The translations under genes and the position numbers were made by a program. A stretch of DNA of 64,000 bases from Nemertoderma westbladi (lineage: Eukaryota; Animalia; Xenacoelomorpha), in assembly GCA_032718475.1 (NCBI GenBank), contig JAUCBJ010001975.1:36649-100648 (forward strand). The letters are read 5' to 3'. Under the pieces are notes generated by a model. It was not told where the DNA came from. It searched no databases and saw nothing but the letters and a program-made list of their open reading frames with translations. Numbering within the stretch: the stretch's first letter is position 1; every line of letters begins with the position of its first letter. Below are positions 16,325 through 61,185 of the stretch, in pieces.

Positions 16325-16420
16325 GTTCGATCGACGTGTCCAAGTCTCAGCAAATATTATGTTGAAAATCACGGCGATCCTTGTGTCTCGAATAGTCACA
16401 GAGAACCATGGGCGAAGCAA
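16325..16420 (+). CDS. Exon (96 nt, phase 0/0): end of vWD domain / start of C8, VRSTCPSLSKYYVENHGDPCVSNSHREPWAKQ
   Basis: Acceptor ttttactgtttag|G and donor CAA|GTAAGT. Matches the mucin/vWF pattern 'S.CP...DPC..N..R..WA.K.C' and joins in frame to the exon at 33614. Confidence 0.9.
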
Positions 16421-19400
16421 GTAAGTTAATAGTCACAGAGAACCATGGGCGAAACAAGTAAGTTAATAGTCACAGAGTACCATGGGCGAAGCAAGTAAGT
16501 TAATAGTCACAGAGAACCATATGGCGAAGCAAGTAAGTTAATATTCAAAGAGAACCATGGGCGAAGCAGGTTAGTTAATAGTCACAGAGAACCATGGGCG
16601 AAGCAAGTAAGTTAATAGTCACAGAGAACCATGGGCGAAACAAGTAAGTTAATAGTCACAGAGTACCATGGGCGAAGCAAGTAAGTTAATAGTCACAGAG
16701 AACCATATGGCGAAGCAAGTAAGTTAATATTCAAAGAGAACCATGGGCGAAGCAGGTTAGTTAATAGTCACAGAGAACCATGGGCAATGCAGGTTAGTTA
16801 ATAGTAACAGATAACCATGGGCCAAGCAAGTAAGTTAATAGTCATAGAGAACAATATGGGCGAAGCAAGTAAGTTAATAGTAACAGATAACCATGGGCAA
16901 AGCAAGTAAGTTAATAGTCACAGAGAACCATGGGCGAAGCAAGTAAGTTAATAGTCATAGAGAACAATATGGGCGAAGCAAGTAAGTTAATAGTAACAGA
17001 TAACCATGGGCGAAGCAGGTTAGTTAATAGTAACAGATAACCATGGGCAAAGCAAGTAAGTTAATAGTCACAGAGAACCATGGGCAAAGCAAGTAAGTTA
17101 ATAGTCACAGAATACCATGGGCGAAGCAAGTAAGTTAATAGTCATAGAGAACAATATGGGCGAAGCAAGTAAGTTAATAGTAACAGATAACCATGGGCGA
17201 AGCAGGTTAGTTAATAGTAACAGATAACCATGGGCAAAGCAAGTAAGTTAATAGTCACAGAGAACCATGGGCAAAGCAAGTAAGTTAATAGTCACAGAAT
17301 ACCATGGGCGAAGCAAGTAAGTTAATAGTCACAGAGAACCATGGGCGAAGCAAGTAAGTTAATAGTAACAGATAACCATGGGCAAAGCAATTAAGTTAAT
17401 AGTCACAGAGTACCATGGGCGAAGCAAGTAAGTTAATAGTCACAGAATACCATGGGCGAAGCAAGTAAGTTAATAGTCACAGAGAACCATGGGCAATGCA
17501 GGTTAGTTAATAGTCACAGAGTACCATGGGCAATGCAGGTTAGTTAATAGTAACAGATAACCATGGGCAAAGCAGGTTAGTTAATAGTAACAGATAACCA
17601 TGGGCAAAGCAAGTAAGTTAATAGTCACAGAGAACCATGGGCAAAGCAAGTAAGTTAATAGTCACAGAATACCATGGGCGAAGCAAGTAAGTTAATAGTC
17701 ATAGAGAACAATATGGGCGAAGCAAGTAAGTTAATAGTAACAGATAACCATGGGCGAAGCAGGTTAGTTAATAGTAACAGATAACCATGGGCAAAGCAAG
17801 TAAGTTAATAGTCACAGAGAACCATGGGCAAAGCAAGTAAGTTAATAGTCACAGAATACCATGGGCGAAGCAAGTAAGTTAATAGTCACAGAATACCATG
17901 GGCGAAGCAAGTAAGTTAATAGTCACAGAGAACCATGGGCAATGCAGGTTAGTTAATAGTCACAGAGAACCATGGGCAATGCAAGTAAGTTAATAGTAAC
18001 AGATAACCATGGGCAAAGCAAGTAAGTTAATAGTAACAGATAACCATGGGCAAAGCAATTAAGTTAATAGTCACAGAGTACCATGGGCGAAGCAAGTAAG
18101 TTAATAGTCACAGAATACCATGGGCGAAGCAAGTAAGTTAATAGTCACAGAGAACCATGGGCGAAGCAAGTAAGTTAATATTCAAAGAGAACCATGGGCC
18201 AAGCAAGTAAGTTAATAGTCACAGAGAACAATATGGGCGAAGCAGGTTAGTTAATAGTAACAGATAACCATGGGCAAAGCAAGTAAGTTAATAGTCACAG
18301 AGTACCATGGGCGAAGCAGGTTAGTTAATAGTAACAGATAACCATGGGCAAAGCAAGTAAGTTAATAGTCACAGAGTACCATGGGCGAAGCAAGTAAGTT
18401 AATAGTAACAGATAACCATGGGCAAAGCAAGTAAGTTAATAGTAACAGATAACCATGGGCAAAGCAAGTAAGTTAATAGTCACAGAGAACCATGGGCAAA
18501 GCAAGTAAGTTAATAGTCACAGAATACCATGGGCGAAGCAAGTAAGTTAATAGTCATAGAGAACAATATGGGCGAAGCAAGTAAGTTAATAGTAACAGAT
18601 AACCATGGGCGAAGCAGGTTAGTTAATAGTAACAGATAACCATGGGCAAAGCAAGTAAGTTAATAGTCACAGAGAACCATGGGCAAAGCAAGTAAGTTAA
18701 TAGTCACAGAATACCATGGGCGAAGCAAGTAAGTTAATAGTCACAGAATACCATGGGCGAAGCAAGTAAGTTAATAGTCACAGAGAACCATGGGCGAAGC
18801 AAGTAAGTTAATAGTCACAGAATACCATGGGCCAAGCAAGTAAGTTAATAGTCATAGAGAACAATATGGGCGAAGCAAGTAAGTTAATAGTAACAGATAA
18901 CCATGGGCAAAGCAAGTAAGTTAATAGTCACAGAGAACCATGGGCAAAGCAAGTAAGTTAATAGTCACAGAATACCATGGGCGAAGCAAGTAAGTTAATA
19001 GTCACAGAGAACCATGGGCGAAGCAAGTAAGTTAATAGTAACAGATAACCATGGGCAATGCAGGTTAGTTAATAGTCACAGAGAACCATGGGCAATGCAG
19101 GTTAGTTAATAGTCACAGAGTACCATGGGCGAAGCAAGTAAGTTAATAGTCACAGAGAACCATGGGCGAAGCAAGTAAGTTAATAGTAACAGATAACCAT
19201 GGGCAAAGCAATTAAGTTAATAGTCACAGAGTACCATGGGCGAAGCAAGTAAGTTAATAGTCACAGAATACCATGGGCGAAGCAAGTAAGTTAATAGTCA
19301 CAGAGAACAATATGGGCGAAGCAGGTTAGTTAATAGTAACAGATAACCATGGGCAAAGCAAGTAAGTTAATAGTCACAGAGAACCATGGGCAAAGCAAGT

Positions 19401-22400
19401 AAGTTAATAGTCACAGAATACCATGGGCGAAGCAAGTAAGTTAATAGTCACAGAGAACCATGGGCGAAGCAAGTAAGTTAATAGTAACAGATAACCATGG
19501 GCAAAGCAATTAAGTTAATAGTCACAGAGTACCATGGGCGAAGCAAGTAAGTTAATAGTCACAGAATACCATGGGCGAAGCAAGTAAGTTAATAGTCACA
19601 GAGAACCATGGGCAAGGCAAGTAAGTTAATATTCAAAGAGAACCATGGGCCAAGCAAGTAAGTTAATAGTCATAGAGAACAATATGGGCGAAGCAGGTTA
19701 GTTAATAGTAACAGATAACCATGGGCGAAGCAAGTAAGTTAATAGTCACAGAGTACCATGGGCGAAGCAAGTAAGTTAATAGTCACAGAATACCATGGGC
19801 GAAGCAAGTAAGTTAATAGTCACAGAGAACCATGGGCAAGGCAAGTAAGTTAATAGTCACAGAATACCATGGGCGAAGCAAGTAAGTTAATAGTCACAGA
19901 GAACAATATGGGCGAAGCAGGTTAGTTAATAGTAACAGATAACCATGGGCAAAGCAAGTAAGTTAATAGTCACAGAGAACCATGGGCGAAGCAAGTAAGT
20001 TAATAGTCACAGAGAACAATATGGGCAAAGCAAGTAAGTTAATAGTCACAGAATACCATGGGCGAAGCAAGTAAGTTAATAGTCACAGAGAACCATGGGC
20101 AAAGCAAGTAAGTTAATAGTCACAGAGAACCATGGGCGAAGCAGGTTAGTTAATAGTCACAGAGAACCATGGGCAATGCAAGGTTAGTTAATAGCCACAG
20201 CGAACCATAGTTAATAGCCACAGCGAACCATGGGCAAGGCAAGTAAGTTAATAGTCACAGAATACCATGGGCGAAGCAAGTAAGTTAATAGTCACAGAGA
20301 ACCATGGGCAAGGCAAGTAAGTTAATATTCAAAGAGAACCATGGGCCAAGCAAGTAAGTTAATAGTCATAGAGAACAATATGGGCGAAGCAAGTAAGTTA
20401 ATAGTAACAGATAACCATGGGCAAAGCAAGTAAGTTAATAGTAACAGATAACCATGGGCAAAGCAATTAAGTTAATAGTCACAGAGTACCATGGGCGAAG
20501 CAAGTAAGTTAATAGTCACAGAATACCATGGGCGAAGCAAGTAAGTTAATAGTCACAGAGAACCATGGGCGAAGCAAGTAAGTTAATATTCAAAGAGAAC
20601 CATGGGCCAAGCAAGTAAGTTAATAGTCACAGAGAACAATATGGGCGAAGCAGGTTAGTTAATAGTAACAGATAACCATGGGCAAAGCAATTAAGTTAAT
20701 AGTCACAGAGTACCATGGGCGAAGCAAGTAAGTTAATAGTCACAGAATACCATGGGCGAAGCAAGTAAGTTAATAGTCACAGAGAACCATGGGCAAAGCA
20801 ATTAAGTTAATAGTCACAGAGTACCATGGGCGAAGCAAGTAAGTTAATAGTCACAGAATACCATGGGCGAAGCAAGTAAGTTAATAGTCACAGAGAACCA
20901 TGGGCGAAGCAAGTAAGTTAATAGTAACAGATAACCATGGGCAAAGCAATTAAGTTAATAGTCACAGAGTACCATGGGCGAAGCAAGTAAGTTAATAGTC
21001 ACAGAATACCATGGGCGAAGCAAGTAAGTTAATAGTCACAGAGAACCATGGGCGAAGCAAGTAAGTTAATAGTCACAGAGTACCATGGGCGAAGCAAGTA
21101 AGTTAATAGTCACAGAGTACCATGGGCGAAGCAAGTAAGTTAATAGTCACAGAGAACCATGGGCGAAGCAGGTTAGTTAATAATCACAGAGAACCATGGG
21201 CGAAGCAAGTAAGTTAATAGTCACAGATAACCATGGGCGAAGCAAGTAAGTTAATAGTCACAGAGAACCATGGTCAATGCAGGTTAATTAATAGCCACAG
21301 CGAACCATAGTTAATAGCCACAGCGAACTATGGGCGAAGCAAGTAAGTTAATAGTCACAGAGAACCGTGGGCGAAGCAAGTAAGTTAATAGTCACAGAGA
21401 ACCATATGGGCTAAGAAAGTAAGTTAATAGTCACAGAGAACCATATGGGCGAAGCGGGTAAGTTAATAGTCACAGAGAACCATGGGCGAAGCAGGTTAGT
21501 TAATAGTCACAGAGAGCCATGGGCAATGCAGGTAAGTTAATAGTCACATAGAACCATGGGCGAAGTCAGTAAGTTAATAGTCACAGAGAACCATGGGCGA
21601 AGCAGGTTAGTTAATAGTCACAGAGAACCATGGGCGAAGCAGGTTAGTTAATAGTCACAGAGAACCATGGGCGAAGCAGGTTAGTTAATAGTCACAGAGA
21701 GCCATGGGCAATGCAGGTAAGTTAATAGTCACATAGAACCATGGGCGAAGTCAGTAAGTTAGTAGTCACAGAGAACCATGGGCGAAGCAGGTTAGTTAAT
21801 AGTCACAGAGAACCATGGGCGAAGCAGGTTAGTTAATAGTCACAGAGAACCATGGGCGAAGCAGGTTAGTTAATAGTCACAGAGAACCATGGGCAATGCA
21901 GGTAAGTTAATAGTCACATAGAACCATGGGCAATGCCGGTAAGTTAATAGTCACAGAGAACCGTGGGCGAAGCAAGTATGTTAATAGTCACAGAGAACCA
22001 TGGGCGAAGCAGGTAAGTTAATAGTCACATAGAACCATGGGCAATGCCGTTAAGTTAATAGTCACAGAGAACCGTGGGCGAAGCAAGTAAGTTAATAGTC
22101 ACAGAGAATCATATGGGCTAAGAAAGTAAGTTAATAGTCACAGAGAACCATATGGGCGAAGCAGGTAAGGTAATAGTCACAGAGAGCCATGGGCGAATCA
22201 GGTTAGTTAATAGTCACAGAGAACCATGGGCGAAGCAAGTAAGTTAATAGTCACAGAGAACCCTGGGTGAAGCTGGTTAATTAATAGTCACAGAGAACCA
22301 TGGGCGAAGCAAGTAAGTTAATAGTCACAGAGAACCATGGGCGAAGCAGGTTAGTTAATAGTCACAGAGAACCATGGGCGAAGCAGGTAAGTTAATAGTC

Positions 22401-25400
22401 ACATAGAACCATGGGCAATGCCGTTAAGTTAATAGTCACAGAGAACCGTGGGCGAAGCAAGTAAGTTAATAGTCACAGAGAATCATATGGGCTAAGAAAG
22501 TAAGTTAATAGTCACAGAGAACGATATGGGCGAAGCAGGTAAGGTAATAGTCACAGAGAGCCATGGGCGAATCAGGTTAGTTAATAGTCACAGAGAACCA
22601 TGGGCGAAGCAAGTAAGTTAATAGTCACAGAGAACCCTGGGTGAAGCTGGTTAATTAATAGTCACAGAGAACCATGGGCGAAGCAGGTTAGTTAATAGTC
22701 ACAGAGAACCATGGGCAAAGCAGGTTAGTTAATAGTCACAGAGAGCCATGGGCAATGCAGGTAAGTTAATAGTCACATAGAACCATGGGCGAAGTCAGTA
22801 AGTTAATAGTCACAGAGAACCATGGGCGAAGCAGGTTAGTTAATAGTCACAGAGAACCATGGGCGAAGCAGGTTAGTTAATAGACACATAGAACCATGGG
22901 CGAAGCAAGTTAGTTAATAGTCACAGAGAACCATGGGCGAAGCAGGTTAGTTAATAGTCACAGAGAACCATGGGCGAATCAGGTTAGTTAATAGTCACAG
23001 AGAACCATGGGCGAAGCAAGTAAGTTAATAGTCACAGATAACCCTGGGTGAAGCTGGTTAATTAATAGTCACAGAGAACCATGGGCGAAGCAAGTAAGTT
23101 AATAGTCACAGAGAACCATATGGGCGAAGAAAGTAAGTTAATAGTCGCAGAGAACCATATGGGCGAAGCAGGTATGTTAATACTCACAGAGAACCATGGG
23201 CGAAGCAGGTTAGTTAATAGTCACAGAGAACCATGGGCGAAGCAGGTTAGTTAATAGTCACAGAGAGCCATGGGCAATGCAGGTAAGTTAATAGTCACAT
23301 AGAACCATGGGCGAAGTCAGTAAGTTAATAGTCGCAGAGAACCATGGGCGGAGCAGGTTAGTTAATAGTCTCAGAGAACCATGGGCGAAGTCAGTAAGTT
23401 AATAGTCACATAGAACCATGGGCGAAGCAGGTTAGTTAATAGTCACAGAGAACCATGGGCAATGCAGGTAAGTTAATAGTCACATAGAACCATGGGCGAA
23501 GTCAGTAAGATAATAGTCACAGAGAACCATTGGCGAAGCAGGTTAGTTAATAGTCACAGAGAACCATGGGCAATGCAGGTAAGTTAATAGTCACATAGAA
23601 CCATGGGCGAAGTCAGTAAGTTAATAGTCACAGAGAACCATGGGCGAAGCAGGTTAGTTAATAGTCACAGAGAACCATGGGCAATGCAGGTAAGTTAATA
23701 GTCACATAGAACCATGGGCGATGTCAGTAAGTTAATAGTCACAGAGAACCATGGGCGAAGCATGTTAGTTAATAGTCACAGAGAACCATGGGCGAAGCCA
23801 GTAAGTTAATAGTCACAGAGAACCATGGGCGAAGCCAGTAAGTTAATAGTCACAGAGAACCATGGGCGAAGCAGGTTAGTTAATAGTCACAGAGAACCAT
23901 GGGCGAAGCAGGTTAGTTAATAGTCACAGAGAACCATGGGCGAAGCCAGTAAGTTAATAGTCACAGAGAACCATGGGCGAAGCAGGTTAGTTAATAGTCA
24001 CAGAGAACCATGGGCGAAGCAGGTTAGTTAATAGTCACAGAGAGCCATGGGCGAAGCAAGTAAGTTAATAGTCACAGAGAACCATGGGCAAGGCAAGTAA
24101 GTTAATAGTCACAGAGTACCATGGGCGAAGCAAGTAAGTTAATAGTCACAGAGAACCATGGGCGAAGCAAGTAAGTTAATAGTCACAGATAACCATGGGC
24201 GAAGAAAGTAAGTTATTAGTCACAGATAACCATGGGCGAAGCAGGTTAGTTTATAGTCACAGAGAACCATGGACGAAGCAGGTTAGTTAATAGTCACAGA
24301 GAACCATGGGCAATGCAGGTAAGTTAATAGTCACATAGAACAATGGGCGAAGTCAGTAAGTTAATAGTCGCAGAGAACCATGGGCGGAGCAGGTTAGTTA
24401 ATAGTCTCAGAGAACCATGGGCGAAGTCAGTAAGTTAATAGTCACATAGAACCATGGGCGAAGCAGGTTAGTTAATAGTCACAGAGAACCATGGGCAATG
24501 CAGGTAAGTTAATAGTCACATAGAACCATGGGCGAAGTCAGTAAGATAATAGTCACAGAGAACCATTGGCGAAGCAGGTTAGTTAATAGTCACAGAGAAC
24601 CATGGGCAATGCAGGTAAGTTAATAGTCACATAGAACCATGGGCGAAGTCAGTAAGTTAATAGTCACAGAGAACCATGGGCGAAGCAGGTTAGTTAATAG
24701 TCACAGAGAACCATGGGCGAAGCAGGTTAGTTAATAGTCACAGAGAACCATGGGCGAAGCCAGTAAGTTAATAGTCACAGAGAACCATGGGCGAAGCAGG
24801 TTAGTTAATAGTCACAGAGAACCATGGGCGAAGCAAGTAAGTTAATAGTCACAGAGAACCATGGGCAAGGCAAGTAAGTTAATAGTCACAGAGTACCATG
24901 GGCGAAGCAAGTAAGTTAATAGTCACAGAGAACCATGGGCGAAGCAAGTAAGTTAATAGTCACAGATAACCATGGTCGAAGAAAGTAAGTTATTAGTCAC
25001 AGATAACCATGGGCGAAGCAGGTTAGTTTATAGTCACAGAGAACCATGGACGAAGCAGGTTAGTTAATAGTCACAGAGAACCATGGGCAATGCAGGTAAG
25101 TTAATAGTCACATAGAACAATGGGCGAAGTCAGTAAGTTAATAGTCGCAGAGAACCATGGGCGGAGCAGGTTAGTTAATAGTCTCAGAGAACCATGGGCG
25201 AAGTCAGTAAGTTAATAGTCACATAGAACCATGGGCGAAGCAGGTTAGTTAATAGTCACAGAGAACCATGGGCGAAGCAGGTTAGTTAATAGTCACAGAG
25301 AACCATGGGCGAATCAGGTTAGTTAATAGTCACAGAGAACCATGGGCGAAGCAAGTAAGTTAATAGTCACAGATAACCCTGGGTGAAGCTGGTTAATTAA

Positions 25401-27729
25401 TAGTCACAGAGAACCATGGGCGAAGCAAGTAAGTTAATAGTCACAGAGAACCATATGGGCGAAGAAAGTAAGTTAATAGTCGCAGAGAACCATATGGGCG
25501 AAGCAGGTATGTTAATACTCACAGAGAACCATGGGCGAAGCAGGTTAGTTAATAGTCACAGAGAACCATGGGCGAAGCAGGTTAGTTAATAGTCACAGAG
25601 AGCCATGGGCAATGCAGGTAAGTTAATAGTCACATAGAACCATGGGCGAAGTCAGTAAGTTAATAGTCGCAGAGAACCATGGGCGGAGCAGGTTAGTTAA
25701 TAGTCTCAGAGAACCATGGGCGAAGTCAGTAAGTTAATAGTCACATAGAACCATGGGCGAAGCAGGTTAGTTAATAGTCACAGAGAACCATGGGCAATGC
25801 AGGTAAGTTAATAGTCACATAGAACCATGGGCGAAGTCAGTAAGATAATAGTCACAGAGAACCATTGGCGAAGCAGGTTAGTTAATAGTCACAGAGAACC
25901 ATGGGCAATGCAGGTAAGTTAATAGTCACATAGAACCATGGGCGAAGTCAGTAAGTTAATAGTCACAGAGAACCATGGGCGAAGCAGGTTAGTTAATAGT
26001 CACAGAGAACCATGGGCAATGCAGGTAAGTTAATAGTCACATAGAACCATGGGCGATGTCAGTAAGTTAATAGTCACAGAGAACCATGGGCGAAGCATGT
26101 TAGTTAATAGTCACAGAGAACCATGGGCGAAGCCAGTAAGTTAATAGTCACAGAGAACCATGGGCGAAGCCAGTAAGTTAATAGTCACAGAGAACCATGG
26201 GCGAAGCAGGTTAGTTAATAGTCACAGAGAACCATGGGCGAAGCAGGTTAGTTAATAGTCACAGAGAACCATGGGCGAAGCCAGTAAGTTAATAGTCACA
26301 GAGAACCATGGGCGAAGCAGGTTAGTTAATAGTCACAGAGAACCATGGGCGAAGCAGGTTAGTTAATAGTCACAGAGAGCCATGGGCGAAGCAAGTAAGT
26401 TAATAGTCACAGAGAACCATGGGCAAGGCAAGTAAGTTAATAGTCACAGAGTACCATGGGCGAAGCAAGTAAGTTAATAGTCACAGAGAACCATGGGCGA
26501 AGCAAGTAAGTTAATAGTCACAGATAACCATGGGCGAAGAAAGTAAGTTATTAGTCACAGATAACCATGGGCGAAGCAGGTTAGTTTATAGTCACAGAGA
26601 ACCATGGACGAAGCAGGTTAGTTAATAGTCACAGAGAACCATGGGCAATGCAGGTAAGTTAATAGTCACATAGAACAATGGGCGAAGTCAGTAAGTTAAT
26701 AGTCGCAGAGAACCATGGGCGGAGCAGGTTAGTTAATAGTCTCAGAGAACCATGGGCGAAGTCAGTAAGTTAATAGTCACATAGAACCATGGGCGAAGCA
26801 GGTTAGTTAATAGTCACAGAGAACCATGGGCAATGCAGGTAAGTTAATAGTCACATAGAACCATGGGCGAAGTCAGTAAGATAATAGTCACAGAGAACCA
26901 TTGGCGAAGCAGGTTAGTTAATAGTCACAGAGAACCATGGGCAATGCAGGTAAGTTAATAGTCACATAGAACCATGGTCGAAGTCAGTAAGTTAATAGTC
27001 ACAGAGAACCATGGGCGAAGCAGGTTAGTTAATAGTCACAGAGAACCATGGGCAATGCAGGTAAGTTAATAGTCACATAGAACCATGGGCGATGTCAGTA
27101 AGTTAATAGTCACAGAGAACCATGGGCGAAGCAGGTTAGTTAATAGTCACAGAGAACCATGGACGAAGCCAGTAAGTTAATAGTCACAGAGAACCATGGG
27201 CTAATCCAGTAAGTTAATAGTTACAGAGAACCATGGGTGAAGCAGGTTAGTTAATAGTCACAGAGAACCATGGGCGAAGCAGGTTAGTTAATAGTCACAA
27301 AGAACCATGGGCGAAGCAGGTTAGTTAATAGTCACAGAGAACCATGGGCGAAGCAGGTTAGTTAATAGAAACAGAGAACCATGGGCGAAGCCAGTAAGTT
27401 AATAGTCACAGAGAACCATGGGCGAAGCCAGTAAGTTAATAGTCACAGAGAACCATGGGCGAAGCATGTTAGTTAATAGTCACAGAGAACCATGGGCGAA
27501 GCAAGTAAGTTAATAGTCACAGAGAACCATGGGCGAAGCAAGTAAGTTAATAGTCACAGATAACCATGGGCGTAGAAAGTAAGTTATTAGTCACAGATGG
27601 GCGAAGCAGGTTAGTTTATAGTCACAGAGAACCATGGACGAAGCAGGTTAGTTAATAGTCACAGAGAACCATGGGCAATGCAGGTAAGTTAATAGTCACA
27701 TAGAACCATGGGCGAAGTCAGTAAGTTAA

Positions 27730-28442
27730 GGGGAGGGGTACACCATTTTGGTCCAAAATATGTCGAAATTTTTTTTATGGTCTATTATAATGCACCATTG
27801 AATGTTGTTTTCAAATCTGAAAACCGCTATGTAATAGCTCTTTTAGTTTTCATGTTATCTAAATTTTCATTTAGGGAATCCTATTGAAATTACTATTACT
27901 ATGTATAATGAAAGGTCGATTATCTCCAAATATTTTTTTCATGAAATTGTCAACTTCAAAACCCTTCTACTTCTACAATTTTTGAGCAATTAGTCTGAAA
28001 CTTTCTGTGGGTGTCTACATAGCCACCCTGCATAAAAGTATCAGACAACTTTTCGAAATTTTTTGTTAATAAAATTTAATACTATTTATAAAAAACCTAA
28101 AAATTTGCATAAATTTGCAGCGCCACCTAGCGGTGCAGAATTATTTTAACAAAATTTCGCCTGATAGTTATGTTGCCCCATCTTTGATCTATCATATAAA
28201 AAAACTTTCATGTGATTAGGTTCAAAACTATAAAAGCCTTAGGGTTTTAAGTGCAACCAAGTTTTTTTTGTTGTTAACTAGTATTAACTAATATTAAATA
28301 GCGAAAAATTTTTTTTTTCTGACTTGTCATGTAGAATAGCATCTTAGGCATCTATATGCCAAATTTTAGCCAAAACCAAACAATTTTGAAACGCTGAGAG
28401 TGATAAATCGAAGAGTTGTCCGAAAATGGTGTACCCCCCCCC
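27730..28442. mobile_element. Non-autonomous DNA transposon (MITE), Kolobok-like, 713 bp, TTAA target-site duplication
   Basis: TTAA at 27726-27729 and 28443-28446. Left end GGGGAGGGGTACACCATTTTGG and right end CCGAAAATGGTGTACCCCCCCCC form terminal inverted repeats. No ORF. TTAA TSD with purine (GG) 5' termini fits Kolobok rather than piggyBac (CC termini). Confidence 0.85.
28116..28137 (-). promoter_or_regulatory. CTCF-type binding motif inside the MITE (second copy at 31456-31477)
   Basis: Minus strand TGCACCGCTAGGTGGCGCTGCA closely matches the CTCF core CC(A/G)CYAGRKGGCRC, and it is a GC-rich patch in an AT-rich element. Motif match only. Confidence 0.5.
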
Positions 28443-31069: not shown

Positions 31070-31785
31070 GGGGAGGGGTACACCATTTTGGTCCAAAATA
31101 TGTCGAAATTTTTTTTATGGTCTATTATAATGCACCATTGAATGTTGTTTTCAAATCTGAAAACCGCTATGTAATAGCTCTTTTAGTTTTCATGTTATCT
31201 AAATTTTCATTTAGGGAATCCTATTGAAATTACTATTACTATGTATAATGAAAGGTCGATTATCTCCAAATATTTTTTTCATGAAATTGTCAACTTCAAA
31301 ACCCTTCTACTTCTACAATTTTTGAGCAATTAGTCTGAAACTTTCTGTGGGTGTCTACATAGCCACCCTGCATAAAAGTATCAGACAACTTTTCGAAATT
31401 TTTTGTTAATAAAATTTAATACTATTTATAAAAAACCTAAAAATTTGCATAAATTTGCAGCGCCACCTAGCGGTGCAGAATTATTTTAACAAAATTTCGC
31501 CTGATAGTTATGTTGCCCCATCTTTGATCTATCATATAAAAAAACTTTCATGTGATTAGGTTCAAAACTATAAAAGCCTTAGGGTTTTAAGTGCAACCAA
31601 GTTTTTTTTGTTGTTAACTAGTATTAACTAATATTAAATAGCGAAAAATTTTTTTTTTCTGACTTGTCATGTAGAATAGCATCTTAGGCATCTATATGCC
31701 AAATTTTAGCCAAAACCAAACAATTTTGAAACGCTGAGAGTGATAAATCGAAGAGTTGTCCGAAAATGGTGTACCCCCCCCCCCC
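31070..31785. mobile_element. Second copy of the same Kolobok-like MITE (716 bp)
   Basis: Same sequence and same flanking satellite variants at offset 3340. Terminal C-run is 12 versus 9. TTAA on both sides. Confidence 0.85.
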
Positions 31786-33613: not shown

Positions 33614-33708
33614 GTGTGTTCGCTTATTAATGGTCAAGTATTCGCAGACTGCCATTCCCTGGTACAAGCGTCAATCTACTACGATTGGTGTGTTTTCGAT
33701 TCTTGTGG
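33614..33708 (+). CDS. Exon (95 nt, phase 0/2): C8 domain, VCSLINGQVFADCHSLVQASIYYDWCVFDSCG
   Basis: Acceptor tcattctatttag|G and donor GG|GTAAGT. Typical C8 motif 'C..L....F..CH..V....YY..CV.D.C'. Confidence 0.92.
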
Positions 33709-41214: not shown

Positions 41215-41317
41215 ATTGTTATGTAGACCTTGCTATTGTAATATAGACCTTGCTATTGTTATGTAGACCTGGTTATTGTAATGTAGACCTGGCTTATTGT
41301 ACATGTTGTTTCTATAG

Positions 41318-41438
41318 GTTTGTGGTCCAGCTTGCTCACAGAACTGCGAAAACTTTGCTGCCGGTATCGCCGGAAGTAATGTTTGTGACCAACAATGCGT
41401 CGAGGGTTGTTACTGTCCTAAGGGCCAAGTGTTGGATG
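41318..41438 (+). CDS. Exon (121 nt, phase 0/1): TIL domain, VCGPACSQNCENFAAGIAGSNVCDQQCVEGCYCPKGQVLDG
   Basis: Acceptor gttgtttctatag|G and donor G|GTAAGT. TIL signature 'CG.AC...C...C...CVEGC.CP.G.VL'. Confidence 0.94.
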
Positions 41439-41814: not shown

Positions 41815-41895
41815 GTTCAAGATGTGTAGATCCTAACGACCCAGTTGATGGATGTCAGTGTTACAGCGAAAAAACCGGCAAACATTACCCACCAG
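41815..41895 (+). CDS. Exon (81 nt, phase 1/1): TIL end / E-module start, SRCVDPNDPVDGCQCYSEKTGKHYPPG
   Basis: Acceptor ttaacttaatttag|G and donor CAG|GTTAAT. In frame with both neighbours, with the 'CV...C.C......G..Y.PG' pattern. Confidence 0.88.
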
Positions 41896-48800: not shown

Positions 48801-51800
48801 ATAGGTAGCGTTCTCTATTTTACTAATATTTTGCCATTATTGGTAGCGTTCTCTATTTTACTAATATTTTGCCATTATTGGTAGCGTTCTCTATTTTGCT
48901 AATATTTTGTCATTATAGGTAGCGTTCTCTATTTTACTAATATTTTGCCATTATAGGTAGCGTTCACTATTTTACTAATATTTTGCCATTATAGGTAGCG
49001 TTCTCTATTTTACTAATATTTTCCCATTATAGGTAGCGTTCTCTATTTTACTAATATTTTGCCATTATAGGTAGCGTTCTCTATTTTACTAATATTTTCC
49101 CATTACAGGTAGCATTCTCTATTTTACTAATATTTTGCCATTACAGGTAGCGTTCTCTATTTTACTAATATTTTGCCATTACAGGTAGCGTTCTCTATTT
49201 TACTAATATTTTGCCATTACAGGTAGCGTTCTCTATTTTACTAATATTTTGCCATTACAGGTAGCGTTCTCTTTTTACAAATATTTTATATTTTCTGTTC
49301 TATTTTACTAATATTTTGCCATTACAGGTAGCGTTCTCTATTTTACTAATATTTTGCCATTACAGGTAGCATTCTCTATTTTACTAATATTTTGCCATTA
49401 CAGGTAGCGTTCTCTATTTTACTAATATTTTGCCATTACAGGTAGCGTTCTCTATTTTACTAATATTTTGCCATTACAGGTAGCGTTCTCTATTTTACTA
49501 ATATTTTCCCATTATAGGTAGCATTCTCTATTTTACTAATATTTTGCCATTACAGGTAGCGTTCTCTATTTTACTAATATTTTGCCATTACAGGTAGCGT
49601 TCTCTATTTTACTAATATTTTGCCATTATAGGTAGCGTTCTCTATTTTACTAATATTTTCCCATTATAGGTAGCGTTCTCTATTTTACTAATATTTTGCC
49701 ATTACAGGTAGCGTTCTCTATTTTACTAATATTTTGCCTTATAGGTAGCGTTCTCTATTTTACTAATATTTTGCCATTACAGGTAGCGTTCTCTATTTTA
49801 CTAATATTTTGCCATTACAGGTAGCGTTCTCTATTTTACTAATATTTTGCCTTATAGGTAGCGTTCTCTATTTTACTAATATTTTGCCATTATAGGTAGC
49901 GTTCTCTATTTTACTAATATTTTGCCATTATAGGTAGCGTTCACTATTTTACTAATATTTTCCCATTATAGGTAGCGTTCTCTATTTTACTAATATTTTG
50001 CCATTATAGGTAGCGTTCTCTATTTTACTAATATTTTGCCATTACAGGTAGCGTTCTCTATTTTACTAATATTTTGCCATTATAGGTAGCGTTCTCTATT
50101 TTACTAATATTTTGCCATTACAGGTAGCGTTCTCTATTTTACTAATATTTTGCCATTACAGGTAGCGTTCTCTATTTTACTAATATTTTGCCATTACAGG
50201 TAGCGTTCTCTATTTTACTAATATTTTGCCATTATTGGTAGCGTTCTCTATTTTACTAATATTTTGCCATTATAGGTAGCGTTCTCTATTTTACTAATAT
50301 TTTCCCATTATTGGTAGCGTTCATTATTTTACTAATATTTTGCCATTATAGGTAGCGTTCTCTATTTTACTAATATTTTCCCATTAGAGGTAGCGTCTCT
50401 ATTTCACTAATATTTTGCCATTACAGGTAGCGTTCTCTATTTTACTAATATTTTGCCATTATAGGTAGCGTTCTCTATTTTACTAATATTTTCCCATTAG
50501 AGGTAGCGTCTCTATTTTACTAATATTTTGCCATTATAGGTAGCGTTCTCTATTTTACTAATATTTTCCCATTAGAGGTAGCGTCTCTATTTTACTAATA
50601 TTTTGCCATTACAGGTAGCGTTCTCTATTTTACTAATATTTTGCCATTATAGGTAGCGTTCTCTATTTTACTAATATTTTGCCATTACAGGTAGCGTTCT
50701 CTATTTTACTAATATTTTGCCATTATAGGTAGCGTTCTCTATTTTACTAATATTTTGCCATTACAGGTAGCGTTCTCTATTTTACTAATATTTTGCCATT
50801 ATAGATAGCGTTCTCTATTTTACTAATATTTTGCCATTACAGGTAGCGTTCTCTATTTTACTAATATTTTGCCATTACAGGTAGCGTTCTCTATTTTACT
50901 AATATTTTGCCATTATAGGTAGCGTTCTCTATTTTACTAATATTTTGCCTTATAGGTAGCGTTCTCTATTTTACTAATATTTTGCCATATAGGTAGCGTT
51001 CTCTATTTTACTAATATTTTGCCTTATAGGTAGCGTTCTCTATTTTACTAATACTTTGCCATTATTGGTAGCGTTCTCTATTTTACTAATATTTTGCCAT
51101 TATTGGTAGCGTTCTCTATTTTGCTAATATTTTGTCATTATAGGTAGCGTTCTCTATTTTACTAATATTTTGCCATTATAGGTAGCGTTCACTATTTTAC
51201 TAATATTTTGCCATTATAGGTAGCGTTCTCTATTTTACTAATATTTTCCCATTATAGGTAGCGTTCTCTATTTTACTAATATTTTGCCATTATAGGTAGC
51301 GTTCACTATTTTACTAATATTTTGCCATTATAGGTAGCGTTCTCTATTTTACTAATATTTTGCCATTATAGGTAGCGTTCTCTATTTTACTATTATTTTG
51401 CCATTATAGGTAGCGTTCTCTATTTTACTAATATTTTCCCATTACAGGTAGCATTCTCTATTTTACTAATATTTTGCCATTACAGGTAGCGTTCTCTATT
51501 TTACTAATATTTTGCCATTACAGGTAGCGTTCTCTATTTTACTAATATTTTGCCATTACAGGTAGCGTTCTCTATTTTACTAATATTTTGCCATTACAGG
51601 TAGCGTTCTCTTTTTACAAATATTTTATATTTTCTGTTCTATTTTACTAATATTTTGCCATTACAGGTAGCGTTCTCTATTTTACTAATATTTTGCCATT
51701 ACAGGTAGCATTCTCTATTTTACTAATATTTTGCCATTACAGGTAGCGTTCTCTATTTTACTAATATTTTGCCATTACAGGTAGCGTTCTCTATTTTACT

Positions 51801-54800
51801 AATATTTTGCCATTACAGGTAGCGTTCTCTATTTTACTAATATTTTCCCATTATAGGTAGCATTCTCTATTTTACTAATATTTTGCCATTACAGGTAGCG
51901 TTCTCTATTTTACTAATATTTTGCCATTACAGGTAGCGTTCTCTATTTTACTAATATTTTGCCATTATAGGTAGCGTTCTCTATTTTACTAATATTTTCC
52001 CATTATAGGTAGCGTTCTCTATTTTACTAATATTTTGCCATTACAGGTAGCGTTCTCTATTTTACTAATATTTTGCCTTATAGGTAGCGTTCTCTATTTT
52101 ACTAATATTTTGCCATTACAGGTAGCGTTCTCTATTTTACTAATATTTTGCCATTACAGGTAGCGTTCTCTATTTTACTAATATTTTGCCTTATAGGTAG
52201 CGTTCTCTATTTTACTAATATTTTGCCATTATAGGTAGCGTTCTCTATTTTACTAATATTTTGCCATTATATGTAGCGTTCACTATTTTACTAATATTTT
52301 CCCATTATAGGTAGCGTTCTCTATTTTACTAATATTTTGCCATTATAGGTAGCGTTCTCTATTTTACTAATATTTTGCCATTACAGGTAGCGTTCTCTAT
52401 TTTACTAATATTTTGCCATTATAGGTAGCGTTCTCTATTTTACTAATATTTTGCCATTACAGGTAGCGTTCTCTATTTTACTAATATTTTGCCATTACAG
52501 GTAGCGTTCTCTATTTTACTAATATTTTGCCATTACAGGTAGCGTTCTCTATTTTACTAATATTTTGCCATTATTGGTAGCGTTCTCTATTTTACTAATA
52601 TTTTGCCATTATAGGTAGCGTTCTCTATTTTACTAATATTTTCCCATTATTGGTAGCGTTCATTATTTTACTAATATTTTGCCATTATAGGTAGCGTTCT
52701 CTATTTTACTAATATTTTCCCATTAGAGGTAGCGTCTCTATTTTACTAATATTTTGCCATTACAGGTAGCGTTCTCTATTTTACTAATATTTTGCCATTA
52801 TAGGTAGCGTTCTCTATTTTACTAATATTTTCCCATTAGAGGTAGCGTCTCTATTTTACTAATATTTTGCCATTACAGGTAGCGTTCTCTATTTTACTAA
52901 TATTTTGCCATTATAGGTAGCGTTCTCTATTTTACTAATATTTTGCCATTACAGGTAGCGTTCTCTATTTTACTAATATTTTGCCATTATAGGTAGCGTT
53001 CTCTATTTTACTAATATTTTGCCATTACAGGTAGCGTTCTCTATTTTACTAATATTTTGCCATTATAGATAGCGTTCTCTATTTTACTAATATTTTGCCA
53101 TTACAGGTAGCGTTCTCTATTTTACTAATATTTTGCCATTACAGGTAGCGTTCTCTATTTTACTAATATTTTGCCATTATTGGTAGCGTTCTCTATTTTA
53201 CTAATATTTTGCCATTACAGGTAGCGTTCTCTATTTTACTAATATTTTGCCATTACAGGTAGCGTTCTCTATTTTACTAATATTTTGCCATTATAGGTAG
53301 CGTTCTCTATTTTACTAATATTTTGCCATTATAGATAGCGTTCTCTATTTTACTAATATTTTGCCATTATAGATAGCGTTCTCTATTTTACTAATATTTT
53401 GCCATTACAGGTAGCGTTCTCTATTTTACTAATATTTTGCCATTACAGGTAGCGTTCTCTATTTTACTAATATTTTGCCATTATTGGTAGCGTTCTCTAT
53501 TTTACTAATATTTTGCCATTACAGGTAGCGTTCTCTATTTTACTAATATTTTGCCATTATAGGTAGCGTTCTCTATTTTACTAATATTTTGCCATTATTG
53601 GTAGCGTTCTCTATTTTACTAATATTTTGCCATTACAGGTAGCGTTCTCTATTTTACTAATATTTTGCCATTATAGGTAGCGTTCTCTATTTTACTAATA
53701 TTTTGCCATTACAGGTAGCGTTCTCTATTTTACTAATATTTTGCCATTACAGGTAGCGTTCTCTATTTTACTAATATTTTGCCATTACAGGTAGCGTTCT
53801 CTATTTTACTAATATTTTGCCATTATTGGTAGCGTTCTCTATTTTACTAATATTTTGCCATTATAGGTAGCGTTCTCTATTTTACTAATATTTTCCCATT
53901 ATTGGTAGCGTTCATTATTTTACTAATATTTTGCCATTATAGGTAGCGTTCTCTATTTTACTAATATTTTCCCATTAGAGGTAGCGTCTCTATTTTACTA
54001 ATATTTTGCCATTACAGGTAGCGTTCTCTATTTTACTAATATTTTGCCATTATAGGTAGCGTTCTCTATTTTACTAATATTTTCCCATTAGAGGTAGCGT
54101 CTCTATTTTACTAATATTTTGCCATTACAGGTAGCGTTCTCTATTTTACTAATATTTTGCCATTATAGGTAGCGTTCTCTATTTTACTAATATTTTGCCA
54201 TTACAGGTAGCGTTCTCTATTTTACTAATATTTTGCCATTATAGGTAGCGTTCTCTATTTTACTAATATTTTGCCATTACAGGTAGCGTTCTCTATTTTA
54301 CTAATATTTTGCCATTATAGATAGCGTTCTCTATTTTACTAATATTTTGCCATTACAGGTAGCGTTCTCTATTTTACTAATATTTTGCCATTACAGGTAG
54401 CGTTCTCTATTTTACTAATATTTTGCCATTATAGGTAGCGTTCTCTATTTTACTAATATTTTGCCTTATAGGTAGCGTTCTCTATTTTACTAATATTTTG
54501 CCATATAGGTAGCGTTCTCTATTTTACTAATATTTTGCCTTATAGGTAGCGTTCTCTATTTTACTAATACTTTGCCATTATTGGTAGCGTTCTCTATTTT
54601 ACTAATATTTTGCCATTATTGGTAGCGTTCTCTATTTTACTAATATTTTGCCATTATAGGTAGCGTTCTCTATTTTACTAATATTTTGCCTTATAGGTAG
54701 CGTTCTCTATTTTACTAATATTTTGCCATATAGGTAGCGTTCTCTATTTTACTAATATTTTGCCTTATAGGTAGCGTTCTCTATTTTACTAATACTTTGC

Positions 54801-57800
54801 CATTATTGGTAGCGTTCTCTATTTTACTAATATTTTCCCATTATAGGTAGCGTTCTCTATTTTACTAATATTTTGCCATTATAGGTAGCGTTCACTATTT
54901 TACTAATATTTTGCCATTATAGGTAGCGTTCTCTATTTTACTAATATTTTGCCATTATAGGTAGCGTTCTCTATTTTACTATTATTTTGCCATTATAGGT
55001 AGCGTTCTCTATTTTACTAATATTTTCCCATTACAGGTAGCATTCTCTATTTTACTAATATTTTGCCATTACAGGTAGCGTTCTCTATTTTACTAATATT
55101 TTGCCATTATAGGTAGCGTTCTCTATTTTACTAATATTTTGCCATTACAGGTAGCGTTCTCTATTTTACTAATATTTTGCCATTACAGGTAGCGTTCTCT
55201 ATTTTACTAATATTTTGCCATTACAGGTAGCGTTCTCTATTTTACTAATATTTTGCCATTATTGGTAGCGTTCTCTATTTTACTAATATTTTGCCATTAT
55301 AGGTAGCGTTCTCTATTTTACTAATATTTTCCCATTATTGGTAGCGTTCATTATTTTACTAATATTTTGCCATTATAGGTAGCGTTCTCTATTTTACTAA
55401 TATTTTCCCATTAGAGGTAGCGTCTCTATTTTACTAATATTTTGCCATTACAGGTAGCGTTCTCTATTTTACTAATATTTTGCCATTATAGGTAGCGTTC
55501 TCTATTTTACTAATATTTTCCCATTAGAGGTAGCGTCTCTATTTTACTAATATTTTGCCATTACAGGTAGCGTTCTCTATTTTACTAATATTTTGCCATT
55601 ATAGGTAGCGTTCTCTATTTTACTAATATTTTGCCATTACAGGTAGCGTTCTCTATTTTACTAATATTTTGCCATTATAGGTAGCGTTCTCTATTTTACT
55701 AATATTTTGCCATTACAGGTAGCGTTCTCTATTTTACTAATATTTTGCCATTATAGATAGCGTTCTCTATTTTACTAATATTTTGCCATTACAGGTAGCG
55801 TTCTCTATTTTACTAATATTTTGCCATTACAGGTAGCGTTCTCTATTTTACTAATATTTTGCCATTATTGGTAGCGTTCTCTATTTTACTAATATTTTGC
55901 CATTACAGGTAGCGTTCTCTATTTTACTAATATTTTGCCATTACAGGTAGCGTTCTCTATTTTACTAATATTTTGCCATTATAGGTAGCGTTCTCTATTT
56001 TACTAATATTTTGCCATTATAGATAGCGTTCTCTATTTTACTAATATTTTGCCATTATAGATAGCGTTCTCTATTTTACTAATATTTTGCCATTACAGGT
56101 AGCGTTCTCTATTTTACTAATATTTTGCCATTACAGGTAGCGTTCTCTATTTTACTAATATTTTGCCATTATTGGTAGCGTTCTCTATTTTACTAATATT
56201 TTGCCATTACAGGTAGCGTTCTCTATTTTACTAATATTTTGCCATTATAGGTAGCGTTCTCTATTTTACTAATATTTTGCCATTATTGGTAGCGTTCTCT
56301 ATTTTACTAATATTTTGCCATTACAGGTAGCGTTCTCTATTTTACTAATATTTTGCCATTATAGGTAGCGTTCTCTATTTTACTAATATTTTGCCATTAC
56401 AGGTAGCGTTCTCTATTTTACTAATATTTTGCCATTACAGGTAGCGTTCTCTATTTTACTAATATTTTGCCATTACAGGTAGCGTTCTCTATTTTACTAA
56501 TATTTTGCCATTATTGGTAGCGTTCTCTATTTTACTAATATTTTGCCATTATAGGTAGCGTTCTCTATTTTACTAATATTTTCCCATTATTGGTAGCGTT
56601 CATTATTTTACTAATATTTTGCCATTATAGGTAGCGTTCTCTATTTTACTAATATTTTCCCATTAGAGGTAGCGTCTCTATTTTACTAATATTTTGCCAT
56701 TACAGGTAGCGTTCTCTATTTTACTAATATTTTGCCATTATAGGTAGCGTTCTCTATTTTACTAATATTTTCCCATTAGAGGTAGCGTCTCTATTTTACT
56801 AATATTTTGCCATTACAGGTAGCGTTCTCTATTTTACTAATATTTTGCCATTATAGGTAGCGTTCTCTATTTTACTAATATTTTGCCATTACAGGTAGCG
56901 TTCTCTATTTTACTAATATTTTGCCATTATAGGTAGCGTTCTCTATTTTACTAATATTTTGCCATTACAGGTAGCGTTCTCTATTTTACTAATATTTTGC
57001 CATTATAGATAGCGTTCTCTATTTTACTAATATTTTGCCATTACAGGTAGCGTTCTCTATTTTACTAATATTTTGCCATTACAGGTAGCGTTCTCTATTT
57101 TACTAATATTTTGCCATTATAGGTAGCGTTCTCTATTTTACTAATATTTTGCCTTATAGGTAGCGTTCTCTATTTTACTAATATTTTGCCATATAGGTAG
57201 CGTTCTCTATTTTACTAATATTTTGCCTTATAGGTAGCGTTCTCTATTTTACTAATACTTTGCCATTATTGGTAGCGTTCTCTATTTTACTAATATTTTG
57301 CCATTATTGGTAGCGTTCTCTATTTTACTAATATTTTGCCATTATAGGTAGCGTTCTCTATTTTACTAATATTTTGCCTTATAGGTAGCGTTCTCTATTT
57401 TACTAATATTTTGCCATATAGGTAGCGTTCTCTATTTTACTAATATTTTGCCTTATAGGTAGCGTTCTCTATTTTACTAATACTTTGCCATTATTGGTAG
57501 CGTTCTCTATTTTACTAATATTTTCCCATTATAGGTAGCGTTCTCTATTTTACTAATATTTTGCCATTATAGGTAGCGTTCACTATTTTACTAATATTTT
57601 GCCATTATAGGTAGCGTTCTCTATTTTACTAATATTTTGCCATTATAGGTAGCGTTCTCTATTTTACTATTATTTTGCCATTATAGGTAGCGTTCTCTAT
57701 TTTACTAATATTTTCCCATTACAGGTAGCATTCTCTATTTTACTAATATTTTGCCATTACAGGTAGCGTTCTCTATTTTACTAATATTTTGCCATTACAG

Positions 57801-60800
57801 GTAGCGTTCTCTATTTTACTAATATTTTGCCATTACAGGTAGCGTTCTCTATTTTACTAATATTTTGCCATTACAGGTAGCGTTCTCTTTTTACAAATAT
57901 TTTATATTTTCTGTTCTATTTTACTAATATTTTGCCATTACAGGTAGCGTTCTCTATTTTACTAATATTTTGCCATTACAGGTAGCATTCTCTATTTTAC
58001 TAATATTTTGCCATTACAGGTAGCGTTCTCTATTTTACTAATATTTTGCCATTACAGGTAGCGTTCTCTATTTTACTAATATTTTGCCATTACAGGTAGC
58101 GTTCTCTATTTTACTAATATTTTCCCATTATAGGTAGCATTCTCTATTTTACTAATATTTTGCCATTACAGGTAGCGTTCTCTATTTTACTAATATTTTG
58201 CCATTACAGGTAGCGTTCTCTATTTTACTAATATTTTGCCATTATAGGTAGCGTTCTCTATTTTACTAATATTTTCCCATTATAGGTAGCGTTCTCTATT
58301 TTACTAATATTTTGCCATTACAGGTAGCGTTCTCTATTTTACTAATATTTTGCCTTATAGGTAGCGTTCTCTATTTTACTAATATTTTGCCATTACAGGT
58401 AGCGTTCTCTATTTTACTAATATTTTGCCATTACAGGTAGCGTTCTCTATTTTACTAATATTTTGCCTTATAGGTAGCGTTCTCTATTTTACTAATATTT
58501 TGCCATTATAGGTAGCGTTCTCTATTTTACTAATATTTTGCCATTATAGGTAGCGTTCACTATTTTACTAATATTTTCCCATTATAGGTAGCGTTCTCTA
58601 TTTTACTAATATTTTGCCATTATAGGTAGCGTTCTCTATTTTACTAATATTTTGCCATTACAGGTAGCGTTCTCTATTTTACTAATATTTTGCCATTATA
58701 GGTAGCGTTCTCTATTTTACTAATATTTTGCCATTACAGGTAGCGTTCTCTATTTTACTAATATTTTGCCATTACAGGTAGCGTTCTCTATTTTACTAAT
58801 ATTTTGCCATTACAGGTAGCGTTCTCTATTTTACTAATATTTTGCCATTATTGGTAGCGTTCTCTATTTTACTAATATTTTGCCATTATAGGTAGCGTTC
58901 TCTATTTTACTAATATTTTCCCATTATTGGTAGCGTTCATTATTTTACTAATATTTTGCCATTATAGGTAGCGTTCTCTATTTTACTAATATTTTCCCAT
59001 TAGAGGTAGCGTCTCTATTTTACTAATATTTTGCCATTACAGGTAGCGTTCTCTATTTTACTAATATTTTGCCATTATAGGTAGCGTTCTCTATTTTACT
59101 AATATTTTCCCATTAGAGGTAGCGTCTCTATTTTACTAATATTTTGCCATTACAGGTAGCGTTCTCTATTTTACTAATATTTTGCCATTATAGGTAGCGT
59201 TCTCTATTTTACTAATATTTTGCCATTACAGGTAGCGTTCTCTATTTTACTAATATTTTGCCATTATAGGTAGCGTTCTCTATTTTACTAATATTTTGCC
59301 ATTACAGGTAGCGTTCTCTATTTTACTAATATTTTGCCATTATAGATAGCGTTCTCTATTTTACTAATATTTTGCCATTACAGGTAGCGTTCTCTATTTT
59401 ACTAATATTTTGCCATTACAGGTAGCGTTCTCTATTTTACTAATATTTTGCCATTATTGGTAGCGTTCTCTATTTTACTAATATTTTGCCATTACAGGTA
59501 GCGTTCTCTATTTTACTAATATTTTGCCATTACAGGTAGCGTTCTCTATTTTACTAATATTTTGCCATTATAGGTAGCGTTCTCTATTTTACTAATATTT
59601 TGCCATTATAGATAGCGTTCTCTATTTTACTAATATTTTGCCATTATAGATAGCGTTCTCTATTTTACTAATATTTTGCCATTACAGGTAGCGTTCTCTA
59701 TTTTACTAATATTTTGCCATTACAGGTAGCGTTCTCTATTTTACTAATATTTTGCCATTATTGGTAGCGTTCTCTATTTTACTAATATTTTGCCATTACA
59801 GGTAGCGTTCTCTATTTTACTAATATTTTGCCATTATAGGTAGCGTTCTCTATTTTACTAATATTTTGCCATTATTGGTAGCGTTCTCTATTTTACTAAT
59901 ATTTTGCCATTATAGATAGCGTTCTCTATTTTACTAATATTTTGCCATTATAGATAGCGTTCTCTATTTTACTAATATTTTGCCATTACAGGTAGCGTTC
60001 TCTATTTTACTAATATTTTGCCATTACAGGTAGCGTTCTCTATTTTACTAATATTTTGCCATTATAGGTAGCGTTCTCTATTTTACTAATATTTTGCCAT
60101 TATAGATAGCGTTCTCTATTTTACTAATATTTTGCCATTACAGGTAGCGTTCTCTATTTTACTAATATTTTGCAATTATAGATAGCGTTCTCTATTTTAC
60201 TAATATTTTGCCATTACAGGTAGCGTTCTCTATTTTACTAATATTTTGCCATTATTGGTAGCGTTCTCTATTTTACTAATATTTTGCCATTATTGGTAGC
60301 GTTCTCTATTTTACTAATATTTTGCCATTATAGGTAGCGTTCTCTATTTTACTAATATTTTGCCATTACAGGTAGCGTTCTCTATTTTACTAATATTTTG
60401 CCATTACAGGTAGCGTTCTCTATTTTACTAATATTTTGCCATTATAGGTAGCGTTCTCTATTTTACTAATATTTTGCCATTACAGGTAGCGTTCTCTATT
60501 TTACTAATATTTTGCCATTACAGGTAGCGTTCTCTATTTTACTAATATTTTGCCATTACAGGTAGCGTTCTCTATTTTACTAATATTTTGCCATTACAGG
60601 TAGCGTTCTCTATTTTACTAATATTTTGCCATTATAGGTAGCGTTCTCTATTTTACTAATATTTTGCCATTATAGATAGCGTTCTCTATTTTACTAATAT
60701 TTTGCCATTACAGGTAGCGTTCTCTATTTTACTAATATTTTGCCATTATTGGTAGCGTTCTCTATTTTACTAATATTTTGCCATTATAGGTAGCGTTCTC

Positions 60801-61185
60801 TATTTTACTAATATTTTGCCATTTCAGGTAGCGTTCTCTATTTTACTAATATTTTGCCATTACAGGTAGCGTTCTCTATTTTACTAATATTTTGCCATTA
60901 TAGGTAGCGTTCTCTATTTTACTAATATTTTGCCATTACAGGTAGCGTTCTCTATTTTACTAATATTTTGCCATTACAGGTAGCGTTCTCTATTTTACTA
61001 ATATTTTGCCATTACAGGTAGCGTTCTCTATTTTACTAATATTTTGCCATTATAGGTAGCGTTCTCTATTTTACTAATATTTTGCCATTACAGGTAGCGT
61101 TCTCTATTTTACTAATATTTTGCCATTACAGGTAGCGTTCTCTATTTTACTAATATTTTGCCATTACAGGTAGCGTTCTCTATTT
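42851..61185 (+). repeat. 38-bp satellite made of the branch point, 3' splice site and first 16 nt of the next exon (about 480 copies)
   Basis: Monomer GTAGCGTTCTCTATTTTACTAATATTTTGCCATTA(C/T)AG. The final junction CAG|GTAGCGTTCTCTATTT at 61169/61170 is the real acceptor, running into unique coding sequence. Confidence 0.97.

Follow-up and report, generated by a model that had tools for sequence, protein, structure and literature searches.

Minisatellites whose units span an exon-intron boundary have been described in amphioxus under the name of mirages, in the genes for Adh3, the globins BflGb6 and BflGb9, troponin C and PGBD5, and they are reported to leave splicing undisturbed (PMC3087553, PMC3902484). 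In human F7, a 37-bp variable number of tandem repeats in intron 7 offers five to nine identical donors of which the most upstream alone is used, and perfect-consensus decoys did shift splicing (PMC1557585). Here we describe a stretch of 64,000 nt, hereafter the window, from Nemertoderma westbladi (assembly GCA_032718475.1, contig JAUCBJ010001975.1, positions 36,649 to 100,648 of the forward strand), in which a gene predicted to encode an SCO-spondin-like protein contains three tandem arrays built from its own splice junctions. The analysis drew on the sequence of the window itself, on a single check against reads, on homologous proteins and on published papers. The kind of array is already known, being that of the mirages, and what is new is the scale, about 100-fold over the published copy numbers of 3-9. 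A literature search that had most subscription journals outside its reach found no junction arrays of 16-18 kb. The preliminary description of this DNA knew of no arrays of 17-18 kb built from a gene's own junctions; their kind proves to have a name, while the scale of 17-18 kb is without match in the literature searched.

Tandem Repeats Finder (TRF) called the arrays at 16391-33405 (37 bp), 41877-42725 (44 bp) and 42901-61185 (38 bp), all within a gene on the plus strand. After decomposition into units, the 37-bp donor mirage (16391..33440) comprises 417 units, 395 of them with GT, each made of 30 exonic and 7 intronic nucleotides around the donor CAA|GTAAGT; the TRF count of 459 copies was inflated by two 0.7-kb insertions of a miniature inverted-repeat transposable element (MITE). 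The 44-bp donor mirage (41877..42725) holds 18 full units, 17 with GT, with 19 nt of exon and 25 nt of intron around CAG|GTTAAT. The 38-bp acceptor mirage (42857..61185) joins 29 nt of intron to 9 nt of exon at CAG|G and consists of 479 full units plus a longer diverged copy at its far 5' edge; AG is present in 432 units, YAG in 419 and YAG|GT in 402. Distinct unit sequences number 101, 12 and 31 for the 37-, 44- and 38-mers, and identity to the exon-attached copy is 93%, 92% and 97%, respectively. This exon-attached copy is the commonest type in the 38-bp array (184/479) and the second commonest in the 37-bp array (37/417), and the far edges are degenerate, as at the far end of the 37-bp array. 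When compared with the consensus for U1, 301 of the 416 decoy donors of the 37-bp array equal or surpass the real one, and 42 match it perfectly (CAG|GTAAGT, the first at 21502). All of the perfect decoys are separated from the real donor by more than 5.1 kb, which may reflect selection or block history, and the commonest variant donor of this array (108/417) has T at +3 in combination with G at -1.

These results agree with the preliminary description on its central claim, namely three arrays of unrelated monomers, each made of exon plus the adjacent splice site (two donors and one acceptor): between 47 and 71% of 1000 shuffles score as high as the real monomers against one another, which ruled out a common origin. 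Its quantities need some adjustment. The about 36 kb of repeat does fall in these three arrays, but the pure repeat adds up to about 34.7 kb; the roughly 900 near-identical decoy sites correspond to 911 extra copies at 92-97% identity, but the invariant GT or AG is kept in 841 of them (394/416 in the 37-mer, 16/17 in the 44-mer and 431/478 in the 38-mer); and a size of 17-18 kb is right for two of the arrays, but not for the 44-bp one with its 18 units. The count of three also seems to have been incomplete, as a fourth array was likely missed in the first 16,102 nt.

This candidate, a 76-bp array with a 29-bp sub-unit that TRF places at 1..16102 in plus orientation, is at least 16 kb long and has its 5' end beyond the window. 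Between positions 1 and 15,900 it contains 230 copies of a peptide-encoding motif, 222 of them followed by GT; in 24 the motif reads F-G-L-S-W-K before GT and in most others L-G-L-S-W-K. No copy of F/L-G-L-S-W-K was found on the minus strand or within 16,500-64,000. The motif suggested that the repeat copies the end of the upstream exon, a prediction that was then tested against homologues. Among the 121 homologues with enough upstream sequence, 84 carry F[GAV]x[SE]Wx at 57-67 residues before the C8 anchor (64 in our model), and in the best homologues its last position comes immediately ahead of the residue with which the exon that starts at 16325 begins to align, where phase 0 fits. Shuffled 76-bp units gave the motif 30 times in 300,000 with F and 371 times in 300,000 without that requirement, and a first-order Markov model gave 44 and 436. 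The 76-bp array is thus likely a fourth mirage, which would copy the last six to eight codons and the donor of an upstream exon that itself lies outside the window.

The likeness to the amphioxus mirages extends to units that span the boundary, the occurrence of donor and acceptor types, several arrays per gene and concerted evolution within a cluster (PMC3087553, PMC3902484). AG/GT is kept in many copies in both systems, not in all, and unit lengths of 37, 38, 44 and 76 bp fall inside the amphioxus range of 10-160 bp (PMC3087553). Four of six mirage features were found here at the level of DNA: a boundary-spanning unit, an authentic junction attached to the exon, AG/GT retention and unit length. 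The systems differ in that the two largest of the three arrays have 417-479 copies over 17-18 kb, against 3-6 units in BflGb6, and in that they contain block-level higher-order repeats and a MITE. As in F7, the first unit of the donor array holds the exon-intron junction and pseudo-donors lie downstream, the shared length of 37 bp being a coincidence (PMC1557585). In contrast to F7, there are 417 sites instead of 5-9, 42 of the decoys are perfect, and an acceptor array is present, which F7 lacks (PMC1557585). In Drosophila, the giant introns of fertility genes on the Y are also mostly tandem repeat around small intact exons; they reach hundreds of kb to Mb, whereas here the introns measure 17-19 kb and their units come from the gene's own junctions.

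The gene that hosts the arrays has ten exons in the window (16325-63684, plus strand), its introns are GT..AG in 9/9 cases, and the spliced model has 437 codons with no stop and 68 cysteines, so the claim of an intact frame across ten exons stands, with colinear homology besides. The first exon of the window (16325..16420), placed by frame and homologue alignment, gives its last 30 nt to the 37-bp unit. According to Pfam, exons 2 (33614..33708) and 3 (36656..36797) encode the first and second halves of a C8 domain, the latter matching the C8 module, of the D3 type, that gel-forming mucins and VWF contain, and exon 4 (41318..41438) encodes a TIL domain. Exon 5 (41815..41895) ends with the 19 nt of the 44-bp unit, and exon 6 (61170..61322) begins with the 9 nt of the 38-bp unit and encodes a VWC-like end and an LDLa domain. 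Exons 7-10 (61875-61991, 62436-62635, 63239-63390 and 63530-63684) encode LDLa-type repeats and are separated by introns of 139-603 nt. The giant introns measure 17,193 nt (exon 1/2) and 19,274 nt (exon 5/6), and the one upstream of 16325 at least 16 kb. As a side observation, three of the nine donors, those of introns 5, 8 and 9, have T at +3 (GTTAAT, GTTAGC and GTTAGT).

The assignment of the protein rests on several searches. Pfam, queried exon by exon, named a family in six of ten (C8 twice, TIL, and LDLa three times), with both C8s, TIL and one LDLa above the curated cut-off, and gave no match for exons 1, 5, 9 and 10. A HMMER search returned 150 homologues, the spliced model aligning over residues 1-433 with 37-38% identity to SCO-spondin-like proteins, and the joints across both giant introns (exon 1/2 and exon 5/6) are gap-free in the three alignments shown. 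Among ten homologues looked up, seven belong to clusters named SCO-spondin or SCO-spondin-like, and the best matches come from fishes, tunicates, sea stars and amphioxus. With exon 3 as the query, a word-index search of proteins gave no candidates, whereas HMMER did find homologues, and a search of the ESM Atlas yielded C8 clusters only. The SCO-spondin family is marked by a VWD-C8-TIL unit and, after it, repeats of the LDL-receptor class A type (PMC4948705). Here C8, TIL and LDLa are present by Pfam, and VWD would lie upstream of the window; the difference is that a stretch of 437 aa alone is visible, with 37-48% identity to all relatives. In a 47-row tree the sequence joined no supported clade and sat on a long end branch (1.3 changes per column); it did not group with the Branchiostoma sequences, to which it shows 38% identity over the first 200 residues. 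Taken together, the encoded protein is, by its predicted sequence, SCO-spondin-like. The long branch might be read as the sign of a dead or dying gene whose arrays are free of splicing constraint. This we hold to be extremely unlikely, in view of 437 stop-free codons, nine canonical introns out of nine and a retained cysteine pattern; furthermore, exons 6 and 7 have no listed differences between the window and X2, a read set from a different sample and study from the read set X1, while differences in introns are listed.

How such a gene may tolerate its arrays is suggested by the consequences of using their copies. The preliminary description considered the outermost copy to be the functional one; its position is as described, but geometry forces it, since that copy alone touches the whole exon and is the working site for that reason, and we therefore dropped this arrangement as a sign of selection. 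Use of a decoy leads in silico to a premature stop in 911 of 911 cases and to a stop-free mRNA in none, by which a coding role of the arrays is excluded. Per-position conservation of GT/AG was also tried as a test of selection and rejected: GT positions vary by 2-3%, like many other positions, and the copies are not independent, so the measure is unusable for this purpose.

We consider it probable that the junction-spanning arrays of this SCO-spondin-like gene were seeded by a short duplication, grew by unequal exchange and are tolerated since the exon-attached copy alone would be spliced. The anatomy itself provides the first step: the unit is an exon edge plus its splice signal, the extra copies sit in the intron and the gene is intact. 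The seed may have been a slippage duplication across the exon edge, and a 7-nt microhomology between the intron end and exon 6 flanks the 38-bp unit. Growth and homogenisation would have followed by unequal exchange and block duplication, of which the present structure bears higher-order repeats of up to 2.8 kb. Exact internal duplicates reach 1734 bp in the 37-mer and 2755 bp in the 38-mer, in blocks of 1.2-2.8 kb, and a MITE within the 37-bp array was copied along. This element (27730..28442, 713 bp) is flanked by TTAA at either end and carries terminal inverted repeats that are imperfect; its second copy (31070..31785) stems from a 3.34-kb block duplication, in which stretches of 1464 and 1176 bp recur unchanged at offsets of 3340 and 3343, respectively. 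Its termini are a G-run and a C-run, the terminal C run having 9 nt in one copy and 12 in the other; it is putatively Kolobok-like. By analogy with F7 and with the amphioxus genes, the exon-attached site would then be selected through exon definition, combined with a choice that proceeds 5' to 3'. Leaky products from decoys would be degraded by nonsense-mediated decay because all of them carry a premature stop, and the cost would fall on the amount of transcript, not on protein quality.

The open frame and the colinear homology, obtained through the exon-attached sites only, count in favour of tolerated arrays. In the same sense, the block duplications, the degenerate far edges, the existence of arrays away from junctions and the lack of acceptor depletion near exon 6 (the last three units read CAG, and AG is present in 22 of the last 25) count in favour of neutrality. 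The suggestion in the preliminary description that the arrays are tolerated fits, by analogy, the published tests on smaller arrays (PMC1557585, PMC3087553, PMC3902484).

Several points weigh against this reading. The call of the working junctions rests on frame and homology in DNA, not on RNA. The tolerance reported so far covers 3-9 copies, not 400 (PMC1557585, PMC3087553, PMC3902484). The 42 perfect decoys of the 37-bp array belong to the class that competed in F7, albeit the 136 units closest to the exon, over a distance of 5.1 kb, contain none of them. Use of any of the four decoy acceptors closest to exon 6 would yield an exon of 191-305 nt, and since this is an ordinary length, the exclusion of those acceptors is not explained by size. 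Finally, four of eight arrays on junctions are more than a simple null predicts, and the three arrays longer than 16 kb are all of the junction type, whereas none of the others exceeds 2.5 kb.

These last two points bring in a different explanation, in which this lineage favours splice junctions as the places where tandem repeats originate, survive or lengthen, for instance by slippage coupled to transcription or splicing, or because anchoring by the exon shields an array from deletion on one side. Such a bias is compatible with the neutrality of each array. For the null, each array was collapsed to one unit, leaving 7694 nt (5257 nt without pieces of transposable elements) of which 1312 are exonic, with 20 junctions, and arrays were placed randomly outside pure exon; those off junctions have units of 39, 20, 15 and 22 bp, three 20-bp clusters being counted as one array. 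For seven arrays, 0.48-0.75 junction matches are expected, with P(≥3 of 7) of 0.008-0.029; with the 76-mer as the eighth, P(≥4 of 8) is 0.002-0.010. In addition, junction-type arrays take the first three places in length, an outcome of 1 in 14 by chance given four of eight. However, this is a single window, and the P values overstate the significance because it was chosen for the pattern. The collapsed introns are moreover so short (7.7 kb, or 5.3 kb without transposable element pieces) that some matches would occur anyway, and P(≥3) rises to 0.02-0.07 if the 76-mer is not junction-type. Tandem repeat makes up 88% of the window and four arrays of the same gene are off junctions; part of the overlap is expected by chance, the genome being repeat-prone. 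We therefore see a lineage bias, which the preliminary description had put forward, as possible rather than likely.

Another proposal is that the arrays are used: the 38-bp units, where YAG|GT regenerates a donor, would act as a ratchet by which the 19-kb intron is excised in successive steps, or the decoys would feed nonsense-mediated decay for dosage. It has in its favour the 402 of 479 units with YAG|GT, which when joined to exon 5 read CAG|GTAGCG, the length of the host intron (19,274 nt) and the stop in every decoy product. The juxtaposition of YAG|GT in a long intron does resemble ratchet points, but these have strong and conserved donors, whereas the regenerated GTAGCG matches 6/9 consensus positions in a simple match count, without G at +5, and hundreds of tandem copies of the start of a coding exon set the locus apart (PMC8605326). 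The same regenerated site exists once exons 5 and 6 have been joined in the mature transcript and has to remain unused there, and the exon junction complex is described as repressing such sites (PMC8184009). AG|GT is common in this gene anyway, as 5/10 exons start with GT, and the length of the intron is due to the array alone. We judge a use of this kind very unlikely, and the earlier suggestion of the arrays as splicing elements found no support: all decoys lead to a stop, the regenerated donor is weak, and X2 appears with another mix of units.

It may also be asked whether the arrays are largely expansions of a few copies by the assembly, a concern raised by the exact duplicates within the 38-mer (2755 bp) and within the 37-mer (1734 bp). 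The read-based check covers the 38-bp array alone among the four. In X1 and X2, which come from two samples and two studies, a 437-nt contig from 61156 joins the end of this array to exon 6. The highest summed depth across the 38-bp unit is 52,588 in X1 and 121,763 in X2, against 25-35 for unique DNA, that is, about 1500-2000 times and 4500-5000 times the unique depth, respectively; summed depth is not copy number, X1 may be the source of the assembly, and copies at other loci may add to it. In X3, from the sample of X1, the peak is 151 against 4-5 (about 28-42 times); run X5 gave no contigs, runs X4 and X6 contributed nothing (share 0.00), and none of the six runs listed was of RNA. The 101 and 31 unit types of the 37- and 38-mers, arranged in changing blocks, and the depth in X2 speak against expansion by assembly, which for the arrays as a whole we regard as very unlikely; a few-copy artefact is unlikely for the 38-bp array. 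X2 also contains a longer type of 38-mer unit at a depth of 1837 against about 26 for unique DNA, to which other loci may contribute, and which resembles the single diverged copy at the 5' edge of the array in the window. Such a depth for a type found once in the window is as expected of a fast-turning neutral array and suggests turnover between individuals. The C/T ratio at position -3 of the acceptor differs as well between X2 and the window; the contigs give no allele lengths. Apart from the array, the intronic segment 61448-61650 stands out in X1-X3 by its elevated depth and by loose ends, and is likely a dispersed repeat.

Other repeats and insertions lie between exons 2 and 4. A 39-bp pyrimidine-rich array in mid-intron (33913-36363) has units ending in CAG, with the look of stacked acceptors, and is not derived from junctions of this gene. 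A 20-bp array (37346-38109, 38768-39435 and 41215-41306) is split by two insertions, its last unit stopping some 12 nt short of the acceptor at 41318, a borderline position that was tallied as off junction. One insertion, at 38110-38767 on the minus strand, contains a GC-rich open frame of 190 aa, without a Pfam match, that resembles the 3' end of a non-LTR (long terminal repeat) element; the open reading frame at 38238-38810 had no Pfam match. The other, at 39436-41214 on the minus strand between 20-bp clusters, is a broken Penelope-like retroelement with RVT_1 (E 1.6e-8) and GIY-YIG (E 0.0018, below the cut-off) in separate frames.

The locus alone changes little, as the kind of array is known. 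Its value is that of an extreme test of the choice of the outermost site, about 100-fold scaled up, with more than 400 tandem donors, 42 of them perfect, and more than 400 tandem acceptors in one gene. Arrays of this type mislead gene prediction and read mapping. A bolder view, which we find doubtful, is that splice junctions are hotspots of satellite-scale expansion in this lineage and that one true site is found among more than 400 equal or stronger decoys by exon-anchored choice or by YAG|GT ratcheting. If this were true, intron gigantism would be tied to splicing itself and the lineage would offer a natural test bed for splice-site choice. A genome-wide enrichment and larger size of junction arrays, if true, would suggest that splicing and the expansion of repeats are connected through mutation, and would indicate one way in which giant introns may arise.

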